64,000 nt of DNA from an uncultured Pseudomonadota bacterium (lineage in GTDB: Bacteria > Myxococcota_A > Polyangia > Fen-1088), in contig CAWKBC010000047.1 in NCBI GenBank assembly GCA_963847705.1, forward strand, positions 128,001-192,000. The letters are read 5' to 3'. This document shows positions 5,006-18,072 of this stretch, in pieces. The notes below the pieces were generated by a model. The model saw nothing but the letters and a program-made list of their open reading frames with translations, ran no database searches and was not told where the DNA came from. How positions within the stretch are numbered: position 1 is the stretch's first letter; each line of letters opens with the position of its first letter. A program made the translations under genes and the position numbers.

Positions 5006-5491
5006 TCAGGCGTGCGACGGAACGAAGCTGACCGCGCCGATCCGCACGGGCGCCGCGCCTTTCGTGATCCCCCCAGCGGCCTCGAGTTGCATCGGCTTCG
5101 TACAGGAGAGACCACCGCGGCTCATGAACCGAAGCTCGAAGTTGCCCGCCTGGCCGGCCTCGATCGACAGCGGATCGCTGGCCTTCCAGGTCGTGGTGGG
5201 AACCGCGCGCCCGTCGGCGCCGCGCAGGCGAAAGGCATCGCGGTGGATCACCAGCGGCGGCGGGGCCGCATTGCGCACCTGCACTTCGATCCTGGCCTCC
5301 ACGAGGTTGACGCCGGGAAGCTCGGTCTCGACGGTCTCGGTACAGCTCTGGCCAATGACCGCGATCTCGACGCCGCTCGGATCCGCGGCGGCGCCGCTGT
5401 TTTGAACCGGTGGATGCAGCGCGCAGGCAGGCGTCAGCGCGGCGAGAGCAATGGACGTGAAGAACAGGATTCGGGTCTGGTCAATTTTCAT
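5006..5491 (-). CDS. Small lipoprotein, Ig-like (DUF4352-like) fold
   Basis: GGAGG RBS, ATG 5491, lipobox TPAC, V.V.N...F.L...DG....I.AG.....L.F pattern. Confidence 0.7.
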   Translation of the reverse strand: MKIDQTRILFFTSIALAALTPACALHPPVQNSGAAADPSGVEIAVIGQSCTETVETELPGVNLVEARIEVQVRNAAPPPLVIHRDAFRLRGADGRAVPTTTWKASDPLSIEAGQAGNFELRFMSRGGLSCTKPMQLEAAGGITKGAAPVRIGAVSFVPSHA

Positions 5492-5515
5492 GGAAGCGCC
5501 TCCATCCCCAACAAA

Positions 5516-5531
5516 AGCAGCGGCCGTGCCA
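5516..5531 (-). promoter_or_regulatory. Sigma54 -24/-12 promoter
   Basis: Minus strand TGGCACGGCCGCTGCT, near-consensus TGGCAC-N5-TTGC. Confidence 0.85.
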
Positions 5532-5548
5532 TTATAGAAATTGAGCAA

Positions 5549-5561
5549 AATCAAACACTTG
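5549..5561 (+). promoter_or_regulatory. IHF binding site
   Basis: AATCAAACACTTG matches WATCAANNNNTTR exactly, in an AT-rich patch between enhancer and sigma54 promoter. Confidence 0.7.
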
Positions 5562-5585
5562 TGGCAGGCCACGTTTCTCGGGGGC

Positions 5586-5618
5586 GGAGATTCTCCCTGA
5601 GGCCCAGGAATTTCTCCC
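5586..5618 (-). promoter_or_regulatory. Tandem enhancer (UAS) for a sigma54 activator
   Basis: Minus strand GGGAGAAATTCC and GGGAGAATCTCC, 21-bp period; same motif recurs at 10138..10170. Confidence 0.7.
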
Positions 5619-5855
5619 TTGATGACAACTCAGCCGGTTGGATCGGCTGGCGACGGCGGAGCCGCCGGGGCGGAGGCGCGGCCGGATCGAGCGGCGGAGT
5701 CGGTGCCGGCGGGGCCGGTCCTGCCGGGGGAAGGCGTTGGCCACGCCGGAGGCGGCGGCGCTGGCGGTCAGAGTGACGCCGGCGTCGACCGACCGCGGTT
5801 CCCCGGCCCGGCGTCAGCCATCCGCCAAGGAGGCGGCGGCAAGGGTGGGCGCTCA

Positions 5856-7052
5856 TCAAAGCATCAGATTGATCTGGAGCGTGATGAGCTGGGTTCGGCC
5901 GGCGGTTGCCGGGAGCGTCACCGATCCGAGCGCCGCCATCCTGGGGCTCTGCTGATCGCCGTAGCCGTACCGGAGCTTCAGGATCAGCGTCGGGGCCGAG
6001 ATGTAGTAGGCGATCTGCCCCTCGGCCGAGAAAAAGCGATCGTCGGCGAGGGCTGTGCTGGGGTTGGTCCAGCTGATACGAACGGCGGCGTCGAGCCGCT
6101 TTGGGAGCAGCAGAACCCCGAGCTGTCCCCACAGTCCCAGCGACAGGAAGCTCGAGCTGCCCGCCGGATAGGTCCGCCGTACATAGCCCTCGCTGAGGAA
6201 CATGAGACGGCGCGATTGGAGGAACAGATCCGCGCCGCCCGCCCGTTCCTTGTTGGTCATGCCCGTCGGCGTCGCCGTGTAGAGAAAGCTGTTCGGATCG
6301 AAGTTCTCGGTCGCGTCCTGGATGTTCCCGAAGTAGCCCTGGATCGTGAAGGAGACGCGCGTCGGGGCTGGGGTGTCTCCCAGCACGTAGGCGTACTCGG
6401 CGTCGCCGGTCTTCCCCATCGGGTTGGCCGTGACGCGCCCCTCGACGAGGTAGTTCCCGGCGATCGTCGTGAACTGGCGCAGCGGCGAGCCGCCATAGTA
6501 GCCCGCGAAATAGTCAATCCGATCGGAAGCAAGCGAGCCGTACGCCGTGATCCCCTTGTCACGGCCCGTCCAGAAGTAGTCTGGGACCGGTCCCGTTTCG
6601 GGGAAAAGGCCCCGGTAAAGGCCGAAGGACTCGTGGCGTGAGAAGGGTGTGTCCTGCTGCCCGCCGCGGATGCCGAATGCCTTCACTGGCCTGACGTCGA
6701 GGTAGGCGTACAGCAGGTAGGGAGGGTTATCGGCGAGCTCGGCTGTCGTCAGGAACGTGATCCAGGGCCGTACCACGTTCCCGCCCAACGACGGGCGCGC
6801 CGAGTAGATCGCGTCGCGATTCTGCGAAACGCCGTTCAGATACCTCGGCTCGAACCGATATGCCCCCTGCAGGCCGATCCGAAGCCGGTAGCTCTCGTCA
6901 GGGGACTGGAGGACGAACCCTTCTCCAGGATCGTAGCCCGACAACCCCGGTTCTCGTTCGGTATCTCCCCCTTCCGCGTTCGCCGCCACACCTCTCCCGG
7001 CACACATCGAAACGACAGCACACGCGACAATCGCCCTTGGACCTCTCGACAT
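5856..7052 (-). CDS. OprO/OprP-family (phosphate-selective-like) porin
   Basis: Signal peptide; GFVLQSPD..YRLRI, YAYLD, GQQDTPFSRH, GRDKGI motifs; alternating beta-strand pattern. Confidence 0.75.
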   Translation of the reverse strand: MSRGPRAIVACAVVSMCAGRGVAANAEGGDTEREPGLSGYDPGEGFVLQSPDESYRLRIGLQGAYRFEPRYLNGVSQNRDAIYSARPSLGGNVVRPWITFLTTAELADNPPYLLYAYLDVRPVKAFGIRGGQQDTPFSRHESFGLYRGLFPETGPVPDYFWTGRDKGITAYGSLASDRIDYFAGYYGGSPLRQFTTIAGNYLVEGRVTANPMGKTGDAEYAYVLGDTPAPTRVSFTIQGYFGNIQDATENFDPNSFLYTATPTGMTNKERAGGADLFLQSRRLMFLSEGYVRRTYPAGSSSFLSLGLWGQLGVLLLPKRLDAAVRISWTNPSTALADDRFFSAEGQIAYYISAPTLILKLRYGYGDQQSPRMAALGSVTLPATAGRTQLITLQINLML

Positions 7053-7256
7053 GGCCCCTCCCAAAGGCCACGCAAGCTAGGGTCGGCGTCAGGCTTCGCA
7101 AGATCGGCGATCGGTCGGAGCGGAAGAGGCGACGAGCTCAGCGTCGCTGCGCCGGCGACACCGAGGAGCATCAGAACGTCACCAGCGAGGTCGTCGTCGC
7201 GCTCCAGAAGGCGGACTTCGAAGATCTTCGAGCCCGGGCACACGACAACTGATGGA

Positions 7257-8657
7257 TCAGTCGGACTTCGGAAGATCGGAGCTGTTTGGTCCGCGGCGCT
7301 CGGCCGACTCATCGCTCAGCCACTTCGCGAGCGTCTTCCCGTCGACGCCGAGCTGATCGGCCGTGCGACCGCGCTGGCCACCGAACTGGGCAAGAGCCCA
7401 GGCAGCATAGCGGCGCTGCAGCTCGCGAAACGGAATGACGCCGCCCCGAAACTCCAGGTCGGAGGGAGGGCCGCCGCGTTCGATCTCGGTGGGGAGATCT
7501 TCCGGGCCAGCCTCCTCCTTCCGCGCCAGCAGCACCACCCGCTCGACCGTATGAGCCAGCTCGCGCACGTTGCCGGGCCAAGAGTAGGTCAGCAACAGCT
7601 TCAGGGCTCCCACGGTAAAACCACGCATTGGCGAATTTGAATGGCGCTCCCGAGCAAGCGTCAGGAAGTGACCCAGGATCGCCGGGATGTCCTCCCGGTG
7701 ATGGCGCAAGGCGGGAAGCGACACCGTGACGACATCGAGGCGATAGAGGAGGTCTTCCCGAAAGGAACCGGCCCGAACCGCGTCCTTGAGGTCGCGGTTC
7801 GTCGCCGCGACGATCCGCGCGTTGACCGCGCGCTCGCGCGTGGCGCCAACCGGGCGCACCGAGCCACTCTCCAGCACATGAAGCAGCTTCGATTGCAGCC
7901 CGATCGGCATCTCGCCGATCTCGTCCAAGAACAGGGTGCCGCCGTTCGCCTCGGCGAAGAGCCCGGGGCGATCGGCAGTGGCCCCGGTAAAGGCGCCCCG
8001 GACGTGGCCGAAGAGCTCGCTCTCCAGGAGCGCCTCCGGGATGGCAGCACAATTCACGTGGACGAAGGGCGCACCGCTCCGATGGCTTTCAGCATGAAGG
8101 GCCCGCCCGACCACGCCCTTGCCAGTTCCGGTTTCGCCGGTAATCAAGACCGGGACGTCGGTGTCGGCGACGCGTTCGATCACATCGATGACGGCCCGCA
8201 TGGCCGGCGTGTCGCCGATCAGGTTGGCGGCGGAGAACCTCTGCTTCAGGGTCTTCCGCAGGGCGGTCGCCTCGTGTCTCAACCGGTGCTCTTCGAGCGC
8301 GCGGGCCAGGAAGATCCGAAGCTCATCCAGCTTGAATGGCTTCGTGAGGTAGTGATAGGCGCCTTGCCGAATCGATTCGACCGCAGAATCGATCGCGCTG
8401 TAGGCGGTCATCACGATGACCGGCGGACCCGGGGCGACGCGACGAGAGGCAGCCAGGACGGCCAGACCGTCCACGCCCGGCATTCGCAGGTCGGTGACCA
8501 CTGCGTCGAGGGGCTCGGCCGCCAGCCGGTCGACGGCCTCCTGACCACCGGCAGCGATGACTGCGTCGTAGCCGTGCTCGGTGAGACCGTCGGCGATCGT
8601 CCGCGCCATTTCGACGTTGTCGTCGGCAATCAAGATTCGCGGCCGAGGACGATTCAT
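7257..8657 (-). CDS. Sigma54-dependent response regulator, NtrC/AtoC family (REC-AAA+-HTH)
   Basis: ILIADD/TDLRMP receiver, GETGTGKG, ESELFGHVRGAFTGA, LFLDEIGE, WPGNVREL, C-terminal Fis HTH. Confidence 0.97.
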   Translation of the reverse strand: MNRPRPRILIADDNVEMARTIADGLTEHGYDAVIAAGGQEAVDRLAAEPLDAVVTDLRMPGVDGLAVLAASRRVAPGPPVIVMTAYSAIDSAVESIRQGAYHYLTKPFKLDELRIFLARALEEHRLRHEATALRKTLKQRFSAANLIGDTPAMRAVIDVIERVADTDVPVLITGETGTGKGVVGRALHAESHRSGAPFVHVNCAAIPEALLESELFGHVRGAFTGATADRPGLFAEANGGTLFLDEIGEMPIGLQSKLLHVLESGSVRPVGATRERAVNARIVAATNRDLKDAVRAGSFREDLLYRLDVVTVSLPALRHHREDIPAILGHFLTLARERHSNSPMRGFTVGALKLLLTYSWPGNVRELAHTVERVVLLARKEEAGPEDLPTEIERGGPPSDLEFRGGVIPFRELQRRYAAWALAQFGGQRGRTADQLGVDGKTLAKWLSDESAERRGPNSSDLPKSD

Positions 8658-10063
8658 GCGTCGATTCTCCTCCGGTCGGCCGGGATCTCCACCACGGCGC
8701 TGGTTCCGCGCGGAAACCTGGGCGTGAGCGACAGGGTCCCCAGGTGACTCTTGACGATCTCGTTCGTGATTGCGAGACCGAGGCCCGTTCCTTCGCCGCT
8801 CGCCTTGGTCGTGAAGAACGGTTCCAGAACCCTCTCGGCATGTTCTTCCGAGATGCCAGAACCGTCGTCGACGACCGAGAAGCGGACCGCGCTGCCGTGC
8901 GCCTCGACGGAGAGGCGCACGTGTCCACCCGGGGCGCAGGCGTCGCAGGCGTTGAGAAGCAAGTTGACCAGCGCGCTCTCGATCAGGCGCGCATCACCGG
9001 TGATCGTCGGGAGGTCTTCGGAAACGTCGATCGCCAGCGGAATGCCTGCCTTGTCGAAACGGTGCTCCACGAGAGCTCGTGCTCCCTGCACCAGACCGAC
9101 GGCTGACAGATGGTCCGCCGTGACCCGATCGCCACGCGCCAATCCGAGGAGACCACGGATGACCTGACTGATCCGGTGCGTTTGATCCAGGATGGCCTGA
9201 ACGGCCGCATACCCGCGCTGGTCGTCGCGGACCTTTGGCAGGAGCTGCTCCGCCCGTCCAGCGATGACGCCCAGAGGTGTCGACACCTCGTGCGCGACGC
9301 CGATCGCCAGGGTTCCGAGCGAGGCGGCGCGGGTCGCCAATGCGAGCCGTTCGTCCTGTTCGTCGCGCAGGCTGGCGAGAGCCAGCTCCCGTTTGAGCTC
9401 CAGCTCCTTCCGTTGGTTTCGGAGAGCGACGACGCCGAAGACCAGCAATAGTCCCGTCGCCGTCAGCACACTGAGGATGGAGCGCGCTTGCGCCCAGCGA
9501 TCTCGGTCACGCTCGCGGAGCGCCGTGGCTGCGACCGCGATGGTCCAGCCGGCCAGTGGTCCCCGGGCGATCGTCGCCAAACCGACGAAAGCGGTCCGCG
9601 GCGGGAGGCCCAATTCACCCGCCTCCGGCCTCGAGAGATGGACAATTGCCTCTCCGCGCCGGGCAGCATCCACGATGCGGTCGGACGAAATCGAGCGCCC
9701 TTCGCTCGCTTCCAGGCGGGACCCGTCAGGCGGAAGCAGGAACAGCTTCAGCGCACCCTGCCTTTCGACGGCCGCCAGCTCGCGGGGAATGCGGCCGGCT
9801 GCCGCTTCCGGCAGGCCATCCGTCCGAAGGGCCAGAGCCGCCGCCATTCCGCGCGCAAGATTCACCTGCTCGTCCGCCAAATCGGCGAGCGCCGCGCGCG
9901 ACACGCGCACCGCATCCCAGTAGGCCAGGCCGCCCACGATTCCGATCGCGATCCCGACCGACCACAGGAGGCGCGACGTTCGAACCTGAGCGCCGTGGTC
10001 GCTCCCAGCGGTCTTCCCCGGATGAGTGGGCTCAGCTTTCGACCCGGATTCGCTCGCGTACAT
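8654..10063 (-). CDS. Membrane sensor histidine kinase
   Basis: Two TM segments, VAHEVSTPL H-box, NLLLNACDA, DDGSGI, FFTTK, GTGLGL; 4-bp overlap with regulator; ATG 10063 chosen from promoter position. Confidence 0.95.
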   Translation of the reverse strand: MYASESGSKAEPTHPGKTAGSDHGAQVRTSRLLWSVGIAIGIVGGLAYWDAVRVSRAALADLADEQVNLARGMAAALALRTDGLPEAAAGRIPRELAAVERQGALKLFLLPPDGSRLEASEGRSISSDRIVDAARRGEAIVHLSRPEAGELGLPPRTAFVGLATIARGPLAGWTIAVAATALRERDRDRWAQARSILSVLTATGLLLVFGVVALRNQRKELELKRELALASLRDEQDERLALATRAASLGTLAIGVAHEVSTPLGVIAGRAEQLLPKVRDDQRGYAAVQAILDQTHRISQVIRGLLGLARGDRVTADHLSAVGLVQGARALVEHRFDKAGIPLAIDVSEDLPTITGDARLIESALVNLLLNACDACAPGGHVRLSVEAHGSAVRFSVVDDGSGISEEHAERVLEPFFTTKASGEGTGLGLAITNEIVKSHLGTLSLTPRFPRGTSAVVEIPADRRRIDA

Positions 10064-10079
10064 ACTCGACTGCGAGCTT

Positions 10080-10095
10080 AGCAAGGTGTGGGCCG
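10080..10095 (-). promoter_or_regulatory. Sigma54 promoter for the kinase-regulator operon
   Basis: Minus strand CGGCCCACACCTTGCT: GG-N10-GC with TTGCT. Confidence 0.6.
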
Positions 10096-10137
10096 CGAAA
10101 CCGCCACGCAGAAGGCCGCCTTCATCTGATGGACAGC

Positions 10138-10170
10138 GGGACTATTTCCTCCTGCACCGGGAAAAATTCC
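10138..10170 (+). promoter_or_regulatory. Tandem enhancer (UAS) between divergent sigma54 promoters
   Basis: GGGACTATTTCC and GGGAAAAATTCC, 21-bp period. Confidence 0.7.
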
Positions 10171-10224
10171 GCCCGCTTTGCGGTGACCAGGGGTCCCAGC
10201 GCTCGCTGACGCGGGTCATCCCGT

Positions 10225-10240
10225 GGGCATGGGCGTTGCT
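10225..10240 (+). promoter_or_regulatory. Sigma54 promoter for the TolC-MFP-RND operon
   Basis: GGGCATGGGCGTTGCT: GG-N10-GC with TTGCT. Confidence 0.7.
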
Positions 10241-10255
10241 TAGGTCGTTCGGACG

Positions 10256-11707
10256 ATGCCGAGTCGGACGCGCGCAGGGGCGCTATTGGGAGCGCTCGGG
10301 TTATTCAGTTCGGGATTCGCCGTGGCCGCCGGCACCGCCTCGGTACCAGATTCCTCGCCCGCAGCGCCCACTGTCACAAATCTCGGAATACCCCAGGCGC
10401 GCTCAATCACGCTCATCGAAGCACTCGCATTTGCACGCAGCCACCAGCCAGCGGTGCTCGCGTCCCTCGCACGCATCCGAACCGAGAAGGCGAACGCCGA
10501 GGTGTCGCGCGCGCAGTACTACCCGCTTCTCGGCCTGACCGCTCAGTTCCTGGAAGGCAGCACGAACAACACGACGGCTTCCTATCTGACCGATCCAGTC
10601 GTCGATCTGCCGCGGATCGGGGGCACCCCTTCGACAACCGGCGACAGCGCGACCTGGAAGCCCTACGCATCGACGCTCGTGGCCGCGGGTCTCAGCCAGG
10701 AGATCTTCGACTTTGGCCGGATCGCGGCCGAGGCCGCGGCAGCCGATGCGCGCGTGACCGTCGCCGCGCACGCCGCCGACACCCAGCTCCTCGACATCGA
10801 ATTGAACGTCGAGGAGGCGTTCTTCGCGGTCCATGCAGCGAAGTCGATCCTCCAGGCCTCCGAGGAGGCCTATCAGCGATCGCTGGTCCACCGAAACTTT
10901 GCCAGCGCAGGGGTCAAGTCGGGCCTCCGCTCGCCCATCGAGCTGACGCGCGCCGAGGCCGACCTCAGCCGCTTCGACACCGGACGGATCCGCGCGCGCG
11001 GCGGTCTCGCGGTCGCTCGCACGGTTCTGGCCGCAGCGGTCGGCTCGTCGGAGCTGGCACTCGATGCGGCCGACGAGGCGCCCAAGGCCGCCGATCTGCC
11101 GACGCTCTCGAACGCCATTCAGCTCGCCTCGGAACGTGACCCGCGCTTGCAAGAGGCGCTGGCACGGCTGCACCAGCAAGAGCTCGCCACACGAGCGGTG
11201 AGTGCCCTGGCGCGGCCAGACATCCACCTCTCCGCCGCGATCTCAGGCCGGGCCGGCGGGGCCATGCCCAGCAACGGCGGCCAAGAGGCCTCGGGAAGCG
11301 GGTACCTCCCGAACGTGCCCAACTGGGACGGCGCGCTGGTTCTGAGCTGGCCGCTCTTCGATCCGATCATCAACGCCCGCCAGAGGGCTTCGCGCGTTGC
11401 CGAGGAGATCCAGCGGTCCGAGATCGATCTGGTTCGACAACAGGTCGTGGCCTCGGTCGAACAGGCCTACGTGGGCGTCTCCGTGGCGCGGGAGGCGCTC
11501 CCCTCGCTGCAACACGAGCTCGAAGCCGCGCAAGCGAACTACGCTCAGGCGGACGCCCGGTTCAAGGCCGGGCTCGGCACCAGCGTCGAGCTGGCCGACG
11601 CCGAGGCGCTGCGGGCCGACGCCGACATCCGGCTGGCTATCGGCGTCTTCGATCTGGCCAAGGCCCGCGCGGCCTTCGGGCGCGCCATCGCCGAAGGCAT
11701 CAGATGA
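10256..11707 (+). CDS. TolC-family outer membrane efflux protein
   Basis: Signal peptide, two OEP repeats (QEIFDFGR, SWPLFD, RFKAGLGT..EL.DA). Confidence 0.93.
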   Translation: MPSRTRAGALLGALGLFSSGFAVAAGTASVPDSSPAAPTVTNLGIPQARSITLIEALAFARSHQPAVLASLARIRTEKANAEVSRAQYYPLLGLTAQFLEGSTNNTTASYLTDPVVDLPRIGGTPSTTGDSATWKPYASTLVAAGLSQEIFDFGRIAAEAAAADARVTVAAHAADTQLLDIELNVEEAFFAVHAAKSILQASEEAYQRSLVHRNFASAGVKSGLRSPIELTRAEADLSRFDTGRIRARGGLAVARTVLAAAVGSSELALDAADEAPKAADLPTLSNAIQLASERDPRLQEALARLHQQELATRAVSALARPDIHLSAAISGRAGGAMPSNGGQEASGSGYLPNVPNWDGALVLSWPLFDPIINARQRASRVAEEIQRSEIDLVRQQVVASVEQAYVGVSVAREALPSLQHELEAAQANYAQADARFKAGLGTSVELADAEALRADADIRLAIGVFDLAKARAAFGRAIAEGIR

Positions 11708-12906
11708 CCGACCAGAGAGAATCAAGGAGCCCGGGAAGCGAACCTCACGGACGATCGAGGCTGCCGGTGGCGATTGGGGTCTCGGCAATCGCGATTGTCC
11801 TGGTGGGCGGTCTGATGGCGTGGCGTGCCGACGCGCGCACCAACAAGATCGCGCTCGCCGCCCGTCCGAAACCGGTGACGGCGGTCCGGGCCAAACGGGC
11901 GCTCTACCGTTCGACGCGCACCTATGTCGGTACGCTGCAGCCCTGGCTTCAGGCCAACGTCGGACCGCAGCTCGTCTCCGCCTACGTCGACACCGTGCTG
12001 GTGCGCCCCGGCGCGGTGGTCAAGAAGGGTGAAGTTCTCGCGACGCTCGACTGTCGCGAGGCCAGCGCCGCCACCAAAGCCGTCGCCGCCCGTGCGCGGG
12101 CGCTCGACGCCCGACAGCAAGCGGTCGAGCACGAGGCTGCCCGAACGCAGGGGCTCTTGAACGGGGGCTTCGTCTCCCCGAACGAAGCGGAACAGAAGAA
12201 CGCCCAGAGCGCGTCAGAGGCCGCGCAGGTCGACTCCGAGCGGGCCAACCTGGCTCGCAGCTCGCTCGACGTCAACGACTGCATCATGCGCGCGCCGTTC
12301 AACGGTGAGATCGCGCAACGGTTGATCGACCCGGGCGCCTTCGTCCGTCCGGGAACCACCATCGTGAGGGTGATCGATCGCGACACCGTCCGCATGACGG
12401 CTGACGCCCCGGAGATGGACTTCGACGTGGTTCCCGCGGGCACCAGGGTCGCGGTCCACGTCTACGCGACGAAGCGAGACCTCCCAGGCACGATCACCCG
12501 GCGCTCGCCGGCCGCCGATCCGTCGACCCGCACGGTGCACTTCGAGGTCGATCTGCCCGATCCGACCCGCGCCATTCCGGTGGGCACGACCGGCGAGGTT
12601 CGCATCGAGGTCGGTGCTCCAGTGCCCGCAACCGAGGTCCCGCTCTACGCCGCGACCGTGCGCGGGGACGAGGCGACCGTCTTCGTCGTCGACCACGGTG
12701 TGGCGCAAGCACGGACGGTGGCAGTGAAGGGCGAAGCGCAAGGCTCGCTGTTCTTGGATTCGGTGCTGGCGCCGGGGGCATTCGTCGTCACCGAGGGCCG
12801 GGCACTCCTGGTCAACGGCGACCGAGTCGACCTCAAAGAGGAGCCCAAGCTGGGACCGACGGTGACCACACGCCGACCGGCGGGAGCCGAACGAGAAGGC
12901 CGATGA
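11704..12906 (+). CDS. RND efflux periplasmic adaptor (MFP)
   Basis: N-terminal TM, VRPGAVVKKGEVLA lipoyl motif, RAPFNG, P.ADPSTRT. Confidence 0.93.
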   Translation: MTDQRESRSPGSEPHGRSRLPVAIGVSAIAIVLVGGLMAWRADARTNKIALAARPKPVTAVRAKRALYRSTRTYVGTLQPWLQANVGPQLVSAYVDTVLVRPGAVVKKGEVLATLDCREASAATKAVAARARALDARQQAVEHEAARTQGLLNGGFVSPNEAEQKNAQSASEAAQVDSERANLARSSLDVNDCIMRAPFNGEIAQRLIDPGAFVRPGTTIVRVIDRDTVRMTADAPEMDFDVVPAGTRVAVHVYATKRDLPGTITRRSPAADPSTRTVHFEVDLPDPTRAIPVGTTGEVRIEVGAPVPATEVPLYAATVRGDEATVFVVDHGVAQARTVAVKGEAQGSLFLDSVLAPGAFVVTEGRALLVNGDRVDLKEEPKLGPTVTTRRPAGAEREGR

Positions 12907-15900
12907 CCTCGCTGTCGCTCCGCAATCCGATCGCCATCCTCATGATCTGCGTCGGGCTCGTCGTGTTTGCGGCCGTGGTCACGCCGCGGATGAGCGTGGA
13001 CACCTTCCCCGAGCTGACCCCCCCCGTCCTCATCATCGGTACTCTGTGCCCCGGCCTCGGACCGAAGGACGTCGAGAAGACCATCAGCTGGCGTCTCGAG
13101 AAGTACGTGTCGGCGACACCGGGCGTCGATCACGTCGAGAGCGCCTCGCGGAACAGCCTTTCGATCATCTACGTCTGGCTGAAGTGGGGCACCGATCTCA
13201 ACGGCGCGCAGACGTTGGTGCAGCAGCAGGCCGCCTTCGCGATGGCGGCGGTTCCCAAATCGCTCGGCGTGCTGCCCCCCTTCGTCCTCCAGTACGATCC
13301 TTCGAACGCGCCGGTCATCCAGGTGGTCGTGTCGGGCGCCGGCTACACCGGCCCCCAGCTCTACGACTACGCGTTCAACAGCGTCGAGCCGCTGCTGGAA
13401 GGGATCGCCGGCGTCGCCAGCGCGGCGCCCGACGGAGGGCGGATGCGCCAGATCAACGTGGTCGTCGATCCTGTGCGCGCCCAGGCGCGGAACGTCACCA
13501 CGGCAGACGTCTCGGCCGCGGTCGCGAAGTCGAATGCGCTGCTCCCCTCGGGCGAGCTGATCTCGCCGAAGTTCGACGCCAACGTCTACACCAACGCCAT
13601 CCCGGCCCGGGTGAGGGACATTGGTGACGCGCCGGTGAAGATCGAGGGCGCGATCCCGGTCCTCATCCGGGACGTGGCGCAGGTCGATGACGGCGGAACT
13701 CCCCCCACGCAGTCCGTTTCGGTCAACGGCCGGGACGCTGTCTACCTCAACGTCCTTCGCGTTCCGGGGGGCAACACCTTGGAGATCGTGGACGCCGTCC
13801 GCAAGGTGGTGGCCAATCTCCACGATCTGCCGCCCGGGATGACGGTCAAGGCGTTCTTCGACCAGTCGACCTTCGTTCGTACGACCTACCACGGGCTCAA
13901 GAAGGAGATCGTTCAGGCGCTGGTTCTCATCGGGATCGTCATCCTGCTCTTCCTGCAGAGTGCCCGGGGAACGCTGATCGTGTCCGTCGCCATTCCGCTG
14001 TCATTCGCCATCACCCTGCTGGTCCTCTATGCGGCGGGGCAGACGCTGAATGCCTTCACGCTCGGGGGCCTGACGTTGGCGATGGGCCGGCTGGTCGACG
14101 ACGCGGTCGTCGTCCTGGAGTCGATCCACCGTCACCAGCGGATGGGCCTCGACAACCGCGAAGCCGCCCTGCGAGGCGCCAACGCTGTCGCGCTCCCGGT
14201 GTTGGCCTCCACGCTGACGACCATGGCGGTCCTCCTGCCCGTGCTGCTCCTGGCGGGGCTCGCCAAGAAGCTCTTTGCGCCGTTGGCGCTCACGGTGGCC
14301 GTCGCCATGATCGCCTCCTACTTCGTGAGCATGGCGGTGACGCCGGTCGCCTGTCGCTACTTTCTCGGACACGCCGAGCGCGGAGAGCTCGGCCGGCGGG
14401 TGGAGGGCCTGGTCGACCAGATCGCCACCGGCTACTCCCAGCTTTTGCGCCGTGTTCTCCCCTTCCGGCGAACCGTGCTCGCGTCCGCGGCGCTGCTCGT
14501 ATTGGGCAGCGTCTGGGCGGCCGCTCGCCTTCCAAGCACCTTCTTCCCCGAGATCGACGAGGGGATGGACATGATCTACGTCCGCTTCACGCCGGGCATC
14601 TCGCTCACCGACGCCGCTCAGCAGCTGAACGCGATGGGCGAAGCGCTCTCGCGCGAGCTGCCGAAAGGCAGCGTCCAGATGGTCATCGCCAACATCGGCA
14701 CGCCCCAAAACGCGCGCGCGGCCATCATCAGCCCGAACGTCGGGCCCCACACCGGCTTCCTGCGTTTGGCGTTTTCCGAGCCCGAGGAGCGCAGTCTGTC
14801 GCAGTCCGAGCTGGCGGTTCGGGCGCGCGCCATCCTCACCCGCGAATTTCCGGGCGTCGAAGCGCTGCAGTACCCCGGCGGGCTGGTCGCCAGCGTCTTC
14901 GCCAACGGGTACACCGCCCCCTTGGTTGTCGAGGTGCGCGGCGAGAAGCTCGAGGAGCTCGACGCCCGAGCCAAGGCGATCGCCGAGGTGGCGCGGACCG
15001 TCCCCGGCATCCGCGACGTCCGCTCGTCGCTGCAGATGGACTACCCCGAGATTCACGTCGACACCGATCGCGAGAAGGCCGGCCTGGTCGGCATCAATCT
15101 GCAGAGCGCGGCTCAGACGACGCTGGAGGCCACTCTCGGCAACATCAACACGCCGAGCGTCTGGATCGACCCGGACAACGGGCAGTCCTATTACGTGGTG
15201 ACCTCCTACGCCGGCGTCGACGACCTCCGGGCCCTCGCGCAACTGCCCGTCCGGGTGAGCAACACCGGCCAGCCGGTGATTCTGGGGGCCTATGGCCAAA
15301 TCAGGCGCGCGTTGGGACCGATCGCCGTCGAGCGCAACCAACTCGAACGCGCCGCGCACATCTTGATGCAGACGGAGGGGCGAGACATCGGCAGCGTTTC
15401 AAACGAGCTCGAGCGCGCTCTGCACGCCGATGCGCGTACGCGCGACATTCCTTTCGACTACGTCGGACAGGTGCAGCTCATGCGCACGACCTTTTCGGGA
15501 CTGGGCCTGGCGCTGGGGCTCGCCGTCATGGTCGTCTTCATGATCATGGCGTCGCAGTTCAAGTCGCTCCGGCTGCCGTTCGTCATGCTGTTCACCATTC
15601 CGGTCTCGCTGGTCGGGATCGTCCTGGCGCTGATGGCGGCCGGCCAGGGATTCTCCATCACGGCGCTGATGGGGATTCTGATGGTGATCGGAATCGCGGT
15701 CTCCAACGGAATTCTGCTGGTCGACGACGCCAACCGCCGGCTCGGCGAAGGGGTGGAGATGATCGACGCGATCGTGGCGGCCGCGCGCTCGCGGTTCGTC
15801 CCCATCGCGATGACCAGCCTGGCGACCGTGGTCGGGTTGATCCCCACCGCGCTCGGCCTCGATCGCGGCTCCGAGGCGAATCAGCCGCTGGCGCTTGCCG

Positions 15901-16034
15901 TCGTGGGCGGCCTCACCTCTTCGACGATTCTCTCGCTGTTCCTGGTCCCGGTGATGTTCCTGTTCTTCGCGCCCAGGCCGGTCGAGGAGAGCGAAGCCGC
16001 GCCCGGGGCACCACTCGTCGAGGCACACCCCTGA
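12903..16034 (+). CDS. RND efflux permease (AcrB/CusA superfamily)
   Basis: 1043 aa, GRLVDDAVVVLE, VSNGILLVD, R..PIAMTSLAT, PLALAVVGGL. Confidence 0.96.
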   Translation: MTSLSLRNPIAILMICVGLVVFAAVVTPRMSVDTFPELTPPVLIIGTLCPGLGPKDVEKTISWRLEKYVSATPGVDHVESASRNSLSIIYVWLKWGTDLNGAQTLVQQQAAFAMAAVPKSLGVLPPFVLQYDPSNAPVIQVVVSGAGYTGPQLYDYAFNSVEPLLEGIAGVASAAPDGGRMRQINVVVDPVRAQARNVTTADVSAAVAKSNALLPSGELISPKFDANVYTNAIPARVRDIGDAPVKIEGAIPVLIRDVAQVDDGGTPPTQSVSVNGRDAVYLNVLRVPGGNTLEIVDAVRKVVANLHDLPPGMTVKAFFDQSTFVRTTYHGLKKEIVQALVLIGIVILLFLQSARGTLIVSVAIPLSFAITLLVLYAAGQTLNAFTLGGLTLAMGRLVDDAVVVLESIHRHQRMGLDNREAALRGANAVALPVLASTLTTMAVLLPVLLLAGLAKKLFAPLALTVAVAMIASYFVSMAVTPVACRYFLGHAERGELGRRVEGLVDQIATGYSQLLRRVLPFRRTVLASAALLVLGSVWAAARLPSTFFPEIDEGMDMIYVRFTPGISLTDAAQQLNAMGEALSRELPKGSVQMVIANIGTPQNARAAIISPNVGPHTGFLRLAFSEPEERSLSQSELAVRARAILTREFPGVEALQYPGGLVASVFANGYTAPLVVEVRGEKLEELDARAKAIAEVARTVPGIRDVRSSLQMDYPEIHVDTDREKAGLVGINLQSAAQTTLEATLGNINTPSVWIDPDNGQSYYVVTSYAGVDDLRALAQLPVRVSNTGQPVILGAYGQIRRALGPIAVERNQLERAAHILMQTEGRDIGSVSNELERALHADARTRDIPFDYVGQVQLMRTTFSGLGLALGLAVMVVFMIMASQFKSLRLPFVMLFTIPVSLVGIVLALMAAGQGFSITALMGILMVIGIAVSNGILLVDDANRRLGEGVEMIDAIVAAARSRFVPIAMTSLATVVGLIPTALGLDRGSEANQPLALAVVGGLTSSTILSLFLVPVMFLFFAPRPVEESEAAPGAPLVEAHP

Positions 16035-16476: not shown

Positions 16477-18072
16477 CTAGAAGATGTAGAACGCCGAGAA
16501 TTGCACGCGGCTGTTCTTCCCGGTCGAGCCATCCAGGAAGTTCTGGTGGAAGTAGGCGTACTCCAGGCCGAAGCGAACGGCGGAGTTCGCCTCGACGAAC
16601 AGGTTGCCGTCGACGAAGTCGGACTTGTTGAACATCTTGGTGGCGTTCGCCGAGGTCTCGAGCGCCTTGATGTCGCTCGAGTACATGTGCGAGTAGTTGG
16701 CCGCGAGCCACATACGGTTCGGCGTCGGCAGGTAGTACTGCAGCCCGACGAGCACCGATTCCCAGCGGATGGCGTGCAGCACGCCGTCGGCGGTGAAGGC
16801 CACCAGTCCGTTGTCGACGTCCTGCGGATAGGTCGGCACCACGCCCATGGCGTTCGCCGGCGGGCTCGCGAAGGCGGCTCCGCCATTGAGGCCGGTGTAG
16901 AGATCGGCGATCGCCTGACCGTAGACGAACGAGCCGGTCAGCGTCAGCGCGTTGTCCGGGTGGTTGACGTCGGTGGCCGGGATGACCGGGATGAGCGCGT
17001 CGACCGAGTAGCCGTAGCCGTTGATGGTGATCGCCTTGGTGGGCGCACCCGACAGGTTCGGGATCTTGAAATAGCGGCCCACCGTCGAGAAGCCGATCGA
17101 CATCCCGTCCACGGCGCTGCCCGCGGCACCGGCGGTGTGCATGCCCTTCCAGTTGTTGATCGCCAACCGAATGCCGGCCTGGCCGTCGGGCACCTCGGAG
17201 TCACGCTGCGGCGGGCGGGAGGCGGCGCCGGCGAGCTCGACGTTCACGGCGTCGCTCTTGAAGACGTGCGAGAGGCGGAACTGCGGCGAACGCGAATAGA
17301 TCTGCCCGGGGATGCCCTGCATCTCGACGGTATTGGGGTGAAACAGCGACTGAAACCCGAACAGCTGCCAGTACTGGCCGGCCAGGAAGTCGATGTAGGG
17401 CGTCTCCATCTTCAGCGCATAATGGCGCATGCGGAACGTCGGGCTGGTGTAGAACGACGCCTCGGAAACGGCAGGCGTGCCGACCGGGTTCGGGGACGAC
17501 AGCGGCTGATTGCCGAGGAAGTCGCACTCGAAGATGCCGGAGGTCTTGATCGTGTCCGTCTCCGGTCCCTTGAGCTTGACCCCGAAGCGCGAGTTGCGCG
17601 CGCTGAAGGTGGTGCGCCCGTTCTCGGCGCCGTACACCGGCGTCGGGTTCGGCGTGGCCGTGGTCGGAGCCGGCGTGTGCGTGATGGCGGCGTTGCCGGC
17701 CAGATCGTTGAAGGTCTGGGTCGAGTCGTAGATCCCGTCGGCCTCGACGAAGCCATAGACCGTCGCGGAGAACTTGCTCATCACGTTCACCAGCGGCGAC
17801 GAGGTCGGAGGCGTGTGCGCCAGTGGCGTGAGCGTGATCGGGGCCGAAGGTGCCGCCGGCGGTGGCGGCGGCGGTGGCGGCGGTTCGGGAGCGATCATGA
17901 CTGACGGTGGCGGCGGCGGGGGCGGCGGTGCGTCGGCGGCCGGCGGTGGCGGCGGCGCCGGCGCCGCCTCGGGAGCCGGCGCGGGCGTGGCCGGCGTTTG
18001 AGCGACCGCGATCCGACCGATGCAGGAAATCGCGAGCGCGACCACGCTGTTTCTCAAGGGGCCTGATTTCAT
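16477..18072 (-). CDS. Outer-membrane beta-barrel porin (DcaP-like) with Pro-rich N-terminus
   Basis: Signal peptide, poly-Pro linker, VYGFVEADGIYD, ARNSRFG, ECDF, FRMRHYA, LAGQYW, C-terminal FSAFYIF. Confidence 0.8.
   Translation of the reverse strand: MKSGPLRNSVVALAISCIGRIAVAQTPATPAPAPEAAPAPPPPPAADAPPPPPPPPSVMIAPEPPPPPPPPPAAPSAPITLTPLAHTPPTSSPLVNVMSKFSATVYGFVEADGIYDSTQTFNDLAGNAAITHTPAPTTATPNPTPVYGAENGRTTFSARNSRFGVKLKGPETDTIKTSGIFECDFLGNQPLSSPNPVGTPAVSEASFYTSPTFRMRHYALKMETPYIDFLAGQYWQLFGFQSLFHPNTVEMQGIPGQIYSRSPQFRLSHVFKSDAVNVELAGAASRPPQRDSEVPDGQAGIRLAINNWKGMHTAGAAGSAVDGMSIGFSTVGRYFKIPNLSGAPTKAITINGYGYSVDALIPVIPATDVNHPDNALTLTGSFVYGQAIADLYTGLNGGAAFASPPANAMGVVPTYPQDVDNGLVAFTADGVLHAIRWESVLVGLQYYLPTPNRMWLAANYSHMYSSDIKALETSANATKMFNKSDFVDGNLFVEANSAVRFGLEYAYFHQNFLDGSTGKNSRVQFSAFYIF

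Follow-up and report, generated by a model that had tools for sequence, protein, structure and literature searches.

The gene cluster reported here, at positions 5006–16034 of a window of 64,000 nucleotides (the whole stretch of DNA analysed) from an uncultured bacterium of the class Polyangia, can be compared with several described regulatory systems. It encodes a lipoprotein, a porin, a response regulator and a sensor kinase on the minus strand, and a TolC-family protein, a periplasmic adaptor (MFP) and an RND permease on the plus strand; two pairs of short palindromes, candidate enhancers for the regulator, are the main subject of this work. In ZraPSR of E. coli and Salmonella (PMC4987338), a sigma54 two-component system that regulates itself has divergent sigma54 promoters, a small co-regulated protein that is exported, and a role in envelope stress, and the present system would resemble it in these respects. 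Divergent sigma54 promoters sharing one enhancer region, as in ZraPSR, are found at the second palindrome pair (pair 2), and the top fold match of the kinase is the cytoplasmic part of ZraS, with 30% identity. Unlike in ZraPSR, the exported protein is an Ig-like lipoprotein and not the ZraP chaperone, which has a helical fold; the main target would be a TolC-MFP-RND pump; the sensor has no invariant metal ligands; and regulator and kinase score far below the ZraR and ZraS cut-offs (365 against 760 and 150 against 479, respectively).

QseEGF (GlrK-QseG-GlrR) of E. coli also unites a kinase, a sigma54 regulator and a lipoprotein, and at one related locus (L039) the lipoprotein gene lies between the kinase and regulator genes, as qseG does; for QseEGF, an absence of autoregulation has been reported (PMC6075780). 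In the present system, by contrast, the lipoprotein gene has its own enhancer, is duplicated and is often unlinked, the regulator misses the GlrR cut-off (353 against 763), and the GlrR site TGTC-N10-GACA (PMC4987338) differs from the palindrome. NmpR of Myxococcus xanthus, an NtrC-like regulator from a myxobacterium, likewise has two dyad sites at each promoter with a preferred spacing, autoregulation and a small regulon found by pattern search, but it differs in its site (GCGCA-N5-TGCGC), its gaps of 14–15 nt, its oxygen-related targets and its multi-step phosphorelay (PMC11841059). Among the targets of Nla28 of M. xanthus is the sigma54 promoter of an RND efflux gene (MXAN7147); its sites are loose 8-bp direct repeats, mostly intragenic, in a large regulon, whereas those described here are strict palindromes, intergenic and phased (PMC9765219). 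In the searchable part of the full-text literature, no description of the motif or of the system was found, nor of GGAAAATTTCC together with sigma54; subscription journals, RegPrecise and the motif tables of PMC4641369 could hold a similar site. By analogy, the system would work like ZraPSR or QseEGF, and it belongs to neither.

Three sigma54 -24/-12 elements, two motif pairs and one IHF site are present in the window at the positions claimed in a preliminary description of this DNA. The 12-bp repeats of that description (5586–5618 and 10138–10170, period 21 bp) do lie at -113 to -81 when +1 is placed 12 nt after the -12 C (5505 and 10251), and the distance from the 12-bp pair to the -25 base is 54 nt at both the lipoprotein and tolC promoters. 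The repeat itself, given as GGGA-N-WAWYTCC, is corrected here to a 13-bp palindrome, (G)GGAAA-W-TTTCC(C); the direct-repeat model was dropped after a scan of relatives' loci with a symmetrised position weight matrix (PWM). Each repeat would thus be a dyad site for one dimer, and the claim that both tandems have the same orientation loses its meaning, since the site is palindromic. Pair 2 is 53 nt away from the tolC element; the kinase element, on the opposite strand, is at 42 nt, so that one enhancer can serve both promoters.

A PWM of the four window sites was run against the bacterium's own genome (assembly G000, 6.1 Mb, 85% complete), as the preliminary description had proposed. Only three tandems scored high (37.4–37.7 bits; next independent match, 19.5), two of them being the training sites of the PWM and the third lying on contig C8. 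The best genome scores of ten column-shuffled PWMs were 19.1–25.8, and a PWM from 52 sites of relatives only recovered the same three tandems (31.9–33.4 bits; next, 21.3). The features of the region are listed in the table.

Table. Genes and predicted regulatory elements in the region 5006–16034 of the window
Feature	Position	Strand	Remarks
Predicted lipoprotein, 161 aa	5006..5491	-	Lipobox-like signal, Cys23; Ig-like beta-sandwich (MPT63/DUF4352-like); invariant Cys50/Cys130
Sigma54 -24/-12 element, lipoprotein gene	5516..5531	-	TGGCAC-N5-CTGCT; predicted +1 ~5505
IHF consensus, perfect, WATCAA-N4-TTR	5549..5561	+	Between enhancer pair 1 and lipoprotein promoter
Enhancer pair 1 (predicted)	5585..5618		Two 13-bp palindromes, 5585-5597 and 5606-5618, period 21
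OprO/P-like porin	5856..7052	-	Without own enhancer; possibly distal gene of kinase-regulator transcript
Remnant (3' third) of second lipoprotein paralog	7094..7234	-	tblastn 60% over 47 aa, E=3e-12
Sigma54-dependent response regulator	7257..8657	-	Receiver Asp56; AAA+ with GAFTGA at 221; predicted C-terminal helix-turn-helix (HTH) of distinct clade
Sensor histidine kinase	8654..10063	-	Transmembrane segment (TM) 1, ~150-aa extracytoplasmic alpha/beta domain, TM2, HisKA (His258), HATPase; start codon uncertain
Sigma54 -24/-12 element, kinase-regulator operon	10080..10095	-	CGGCCC-N5-TTGCT; predicted +1 ~10069; 42 nt from pair 2
Enhancer pair 2 (predicted)	10138..10171		Two 13-bp palindromes, 10138-10150 and 10159-10171; common to divergent promoters
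Sigma54 -24/-12 element, pump operon	10225..10240	+	GGGCAT-N5-TTGCT; predicted +1 ~10251
TolC-family outer-membrane factor	10256..11707	+	Pfam OEP
RND periplasmic adaptor (MFP)	11704..12906	+	TIGR01730 above cut-off
RND permease, uncharacterised subfamily	12903..16034	+	TM4 GRLVDD; Ser replaces AcrB Lys940

Conservation of the motif at orthologous loci, another check proposed earlier, was found before kinase, tolC and lipoprotein genes in relatives. The symmetrised PWM, made from the window sites only, returned 27 tandems in 514 kb from 33 loci of relatives, against 0–11 for permuted PWMs. One of these tandems is intragenic and each of the other 26 stands upstream of a kinase, tolC or lipoprotein gene; the period is 21 or 22 in 24 of the 27 (allowed range, 15–35). 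A gene-blind pattern search of 89 whole family genomes yielded 50 pairs in 30 genomes, the reversed pattern yielding one. All 50 were inspected, and 40 are upstream of kinase, pump or lipoprotein genes (37 of 47 when the own genome is left aside); the pattern had been shaped on some of the loci found again, so that lipoprotein genes in unlinked positions and genomes added later make up the independent part. Of the ten remaining pairs, one is upstream of a second adaptor-RND, another of an operon encoding two lipoproteins together with a CLC channel, and a third of an SPFH gene pair; a fourth lies on the downstream side of an SPFH pair, and for six no explanation was found. SPFH/band-7 gene pairs with lipoprotein-like signals stand behind or near enhancer pairs at L204, L189, L190 and L209. 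The pattern is present in 17 of the 31 kinase-bearing family genomes versus 1 of the 20 listed (of 28) without the kinase, and in 20 further loci, 18 from other families, the pair was found in 13 of 15 with pump genes and in none of five without them. Kinase, regulator and TolC-MFP-RND form the conserved core of the system across Polyangia.

Altogether, 84 distinct tandems were collected, 68 with a target start nearby. Of 96 target directions, 86 show a sigma54 element behind the pair, the rate in random windows being 3%; such an element is present at 23 of the 24 lipoprotein genes behind a pair. The spacing between pair and promoter is 40–45 nt (n = 19), 50–57 (58), 62–64 (4), 72–76 (4) or 98 (1), with zero cases at 46–49, 58–61 and 65–71 nt. 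The main clusters are separated by one helical turn, and 27 of the 28 non-modal spacings are at most 2.5 nt off whole helical turns from 53; kin in this set are not independent, and the shifted classes were seen in several genera and families. Dependence on the face of the helix is known at a two-site NtrC promoter (PMC7408454), and the spacings represent a natural counterpart of a helical-phasing experiment. Both rpoN and a match to ihfA are present in the genome. The perfect IHF site reported for the lipoprotein promoter stands, being one of only 14 perfect matches to the IHF consensus in the 6.1-Mb genome, but IHF is not a general feature of these promoters: sites with up to one mismatch occur in 0 of 27 tolC, 0 of 32 kinase and 6 of 23 lipoprotein promoters, where, that of the window aside, the consensus is weakly kept in five.

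The enclosed NtrC-family pair had been proposed as the reader of the motif, and our comparisons agree that it is the likely reader, the conserved predicted targets being the lipoprotein gene, the pump operon (TolC-MFP-RND) and the kinase-regulator operon itself. The regulator carries the marks of the NtrC family, a receiver Asp and an AAA+ domain with GAFTGA; GG-N10-GC promoters, rpoN and paired dyad sites about 70–150 bp upstream are also as in that family. The regulators of the related loci form one clade (34 rows; SH-aLRT 99 in a quick tree) with a shared putative HTH. The C-terminus gave no Pfam HTH match; it can be aligned to the HTH found in other activators and shows conservation within the clade, ending D-x-K-T-L-x-x-W-L in most members.

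The order of helices and strands suggests that the kinase sensor is a single Cache-like domain; in the fold search with the full-length kinase the catalytic core prevailed, so the sensor fold was read from secondary structure only. Profiles of the sensor and of the lipoprotein had no sequence match in Pfam or the PDB. Invariant Asp and Arg residues are clustered at both ends of the sensor domain, and no His, Cys or Met is invariant. The sensor-region profile matched 89 of 401 class genomes, in seven families, and none outside the class in a 401-genome sample of the phylum; among the genomes covered by phylum-wide searches, with 7 candidates scored per genome, the sensor family was found in those of the same class only (5 of 400 others). 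A search for relatives with the whole kinase gave one true relative and 79 generic kinases, and the latter were left out. A complex prediction for sensor (48–196) and lipoprotein (23–161), run without folded controls, scored 0.00, which speaks neither for nor against contact.

The regulon had been described as self-contained, which does not hold: the third pair (C8:102562, period 22) precedes, outside the window, a lipoprotein gene 87% identical to the window copy. This gene lies opposite an Rrf2 gene, an O/P porin and sulfate-transport genes, and lipoprotein gene and pair have the same C8 position in eight congeners, which identifies the C8 copy as the resident, genus-wide one. The window lipoprotein gene and its upstream region are 83% identical to the C8 copy over 637 nt; a mutual duplication of the two window promoters is not needed, the lipoprotein region resembling the C8 copy instead. 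Of the 22 regulators of its genome included in the tree, the window regulator alone belongs to the clade, and it is therefore likely to control the C8 gene as well, in trans. On the other hand, kdp operons, suggested earlier as a place to look, do not belong to the regulon. The two kdp operons have their own regulators and no pair, and neither the window PWM nor the relatives' PWM placed a tandem at either kdpA locus in the genome scans. The kdp operon on C30 has a sigma54-like element behind its own activator gene, and that on C33 is followed by a sigma54 regulator, a KdpD-like protein and a kinase.

The lipoprotein has no Pfam or NCBIfam match, with weak DUF4352 matches in 3 of 63 family members. 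Its model is nearly all beta, a beta-sandwich (pLDDT 85), nearest in fold to MPT63/DUF4352-type exported proteins (1LMI, YcdA 4R4G, YjhA 3CFU, Listeria 4EAE) and ApaG (Foldseek E-values of 2e-4 to 2e-3, TM-scores of 0.4–0.55). Identity to these is 9–16% and no function transfers; the conserved Cys pair is unique to the lipoprotein family. Some genomes carry several copies. The remnant paralog of the window is whole in a relative (G024, L038), with its own enhancer pair. In the own genome, a piece on C21 (G000:C21:250092-250409) corresponds to residues 4–108 and that of the window to the complementary residues 109–155; this may be a single gene broken up by rearrangement, or two copies that decayed separately. 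A third lipoprotein paralog (42%), without an enhancer pair, is likewise present on C21.

The RND permease is about equidistant from AcrB and ZneA (304–307 bits) and misses all RND family cut-offs (for the HME type, CusA/CzcA/ZneA, TIGR00914 with 415 against 701); a few His and Met residues are conserved in it. In the HAE1 (AcrB) type, the proton relay is formed by Asp-Asp of TM4, Lys of TM10 and Thr of TM11. The permease keeps the Asp-Asp and the Thr but has Ser at the Lys940 position, and therefore falls outside HAE1; this TM10 Ser is found in every family row (residues 396 and 934 of the permease are concerned). An Arg precedes the TM4 Asp-Asp in 31 of 38 rows, and the seven rows with Pro also lack the second Asp, a covariation which suggests that the Arg forms a compensating ion pair. 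A second adaptor-RND of the same subfamily (47%/67%) is encoded at G000:C30:538090-542459, without TolC or pair, and in G009 a second adaptor-RND directly follows the first pump.

In many congeners, the kinase-regulator genes are located between a protease gene and an operon for a Bax-inhibitor-1-like protein and an M48 protease. At that position of the own genome (C29), both kinase and regulator are lost and one palindrome is left (~275370-275435), upstream of the Bax-inhibitor-1-like gene; this gene has an extended -10 like element.

The enhancer assignment, taken alone, is very probable on this evidence, and we consider it reasonably probable that the whole represents an NtrC-family envelope-stress circuit with paired dimers, phased sigma54 promoters, positive feedback, and a pump and a lipoprotein as outputs. 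Following the mechanism of the family, the kinase would sense an extracytoplasmic cue and phosphorylate Asp56; two regulator dimers, on one face of the DNA and two turns apart, would oligomerise and reach the sigma54-polymerase through a short loop. Pair 2 would fire in both directions, giving positive autoregulation and pump expression, and pair 1, assisted by IHF, and the C8 pair would drive the lipoproteins. What can be read directly from the sequence is the sites, their 21–22 bp period, their helical phasing relative to -24/-12 elements and, throughout Polyangia, their conservation upstream of the genes for kinase, pump and lipoprotein. The least certain step is the cue, which may be envelope or membrane damage; it is so read because of the nature of the targets, all of them envelope proteins; the SPFH gene pairs at four loci fit this theme, and the other copy of the system in congeners stands beside the Bax-inhibitor-1-like and M48 protease genes.

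Several points weigh against this circuit. With the assembly at 85% completeness, a different reader of the motif could be absent from it, and the Pfam HTH_8 domain was not detected in the regulator. The relatives are not independent, and the search pattern was shaped on loci later found again. No kinase, pump or lipoprotein start is near 10 of the 50 pattern pairs or 16 of the 84 PWM tandems; 14 of the 31 kinase-bearing genomes have no pattern match at one mismatch; and L150, L210 and L223 have pump and kinase with no pair above threshold. In addition, the Bax-inhibitor/protease promoter appears by eye sigma70-like, not sigma54, and these genes may be mere neighbours.

The same enhancer and regulator could respond to one substrate of the pump, an organic compound or ion bound at the Cache-like sensor, with the lipoprotein as pump accessory or binding protein and outside any general stress response. 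We hold this unlikely, though well worth keeping in mind: a kinase in the inner membrane with a pump is the usual layout of substrate-induced efflux, no neighbours are as constant as the pump genes (5 of 6 and 15 of 20 loci), which the pair tracks, the lipoprotein gene immediately follows the RND gene in L042, and the sensor domain is small, alpha/beta, with invariant Arg and Asp. However, about a dozen loci of the genus hold the system without the pump, lipoprotein genes distant from any pump keep the pair, and the sensor lacks an invariant His, Cys or Met, with no NCBIfam cut-off for a metal or drug pump being reached. Acid or ion stress as the cue, that is, low pH or a change of proton-motive force read by charged residues near the membrane, is improbable. 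Acid-induced efflux occurs in enterobacteria; a P-type ATPase, presumably a proton pump, follows the regulator in L207 and is found close to a pair in L201; in L186 the last gene of a lipoprotein operon driven by a pair encodes a CLC channel; universal stress proteins turn up repeatedly; and the Asp/Arg clusters of the sensor would suit such a cue. Yet this cargo occurs in only three of more than 70 loci, none in the own genome, and no sigma54 element was found beside the L201 pair. It is also doubtful that the locus represents a Polyangia-specific envelope surveillance of three components, in which the amplified, disulfide-bearing Ig-fold lipoprotein would be the feedback partner of the kinase, the sensor domain an undescribed one, and the RND a pump whose proton relay has been rewired, TM4 Arg taking the part of the absent TM10 Lys, while the natural variation in enhancer-promoter distance would record a strict face-of-helix rule.

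The closed module of the preliminary description, in which uptake by the porin is coupled to efflux by the pump, is very improbable. No clear terminator separates the regulator gene from the porin gene that comes after it on the same strand, 3 of 11 porin homologs come directly after an RND gene of the same subfamily, and a distant O/P porin in L224 has its own pair and sigma54 element; but no pair or sigma54 element is upstream of the porin in the window, its homologs have no pair at 11 of 11 loci, it is missing from all 27 kinase loci examined, its place follows the loss of most of a lipoprotein gene, and the regulon extends to C8. The porin, whose match to Pfam Porin_O_P (PF07396) has E=0.005 and 16.6 bits, below the gathering score of 20.9, has many homologs of 45–80% carrying PF07396, one of them named OprO/OprP family; it may be at most a distal passenger of the kinase-regulator transcript. 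Finally, it is hardly credible that a different factor, be it an unlinked activator or a repressor, binds the palindromes, or that these are AT-rich islands due to chance. Over 20 further sigma54 activators are present in the genome, and one pair, at yccA-linked loci, overlaps a sigma70-like promoter in its upstream part; against this stand the shuffled, permuted and reversed-pattern controls, the co-occurrence with the kinase family and the position in helical steps relative to sigma54 elements.

As for other features, the predicted leaders of the kinase and tolC mRNAs are just 5–6 nt long (10063–10069 and 10251–10256), and in relatives (L053–L058, L061) the kinase ATG varies in position, lying at the predicted +1 or 8 nt past the -12 GC. 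Beyond the pump genes, the window encodes an outer-membrane-like protein without annotation (16477–18072, minus strand), with no pair upstream in the window. Its homologs adjoin the same kinase-regulator genes in relatives L045, L153, L202, L214 and L215, and are also found near porin homologs (L231, L233).

The enhancer of pump and lipoprotein genes is apparently an undescribed example of an ordinary kind of switch; its mechanism is a textbook one and would not surprise a specialist, though the case is solid and testable. Dozens of sigma54 activators are encoded per myxobacterium, few of them with a known site, and here one conserved clade gains a sharp predicted operator, a small list of targets and exact promoter predictions.

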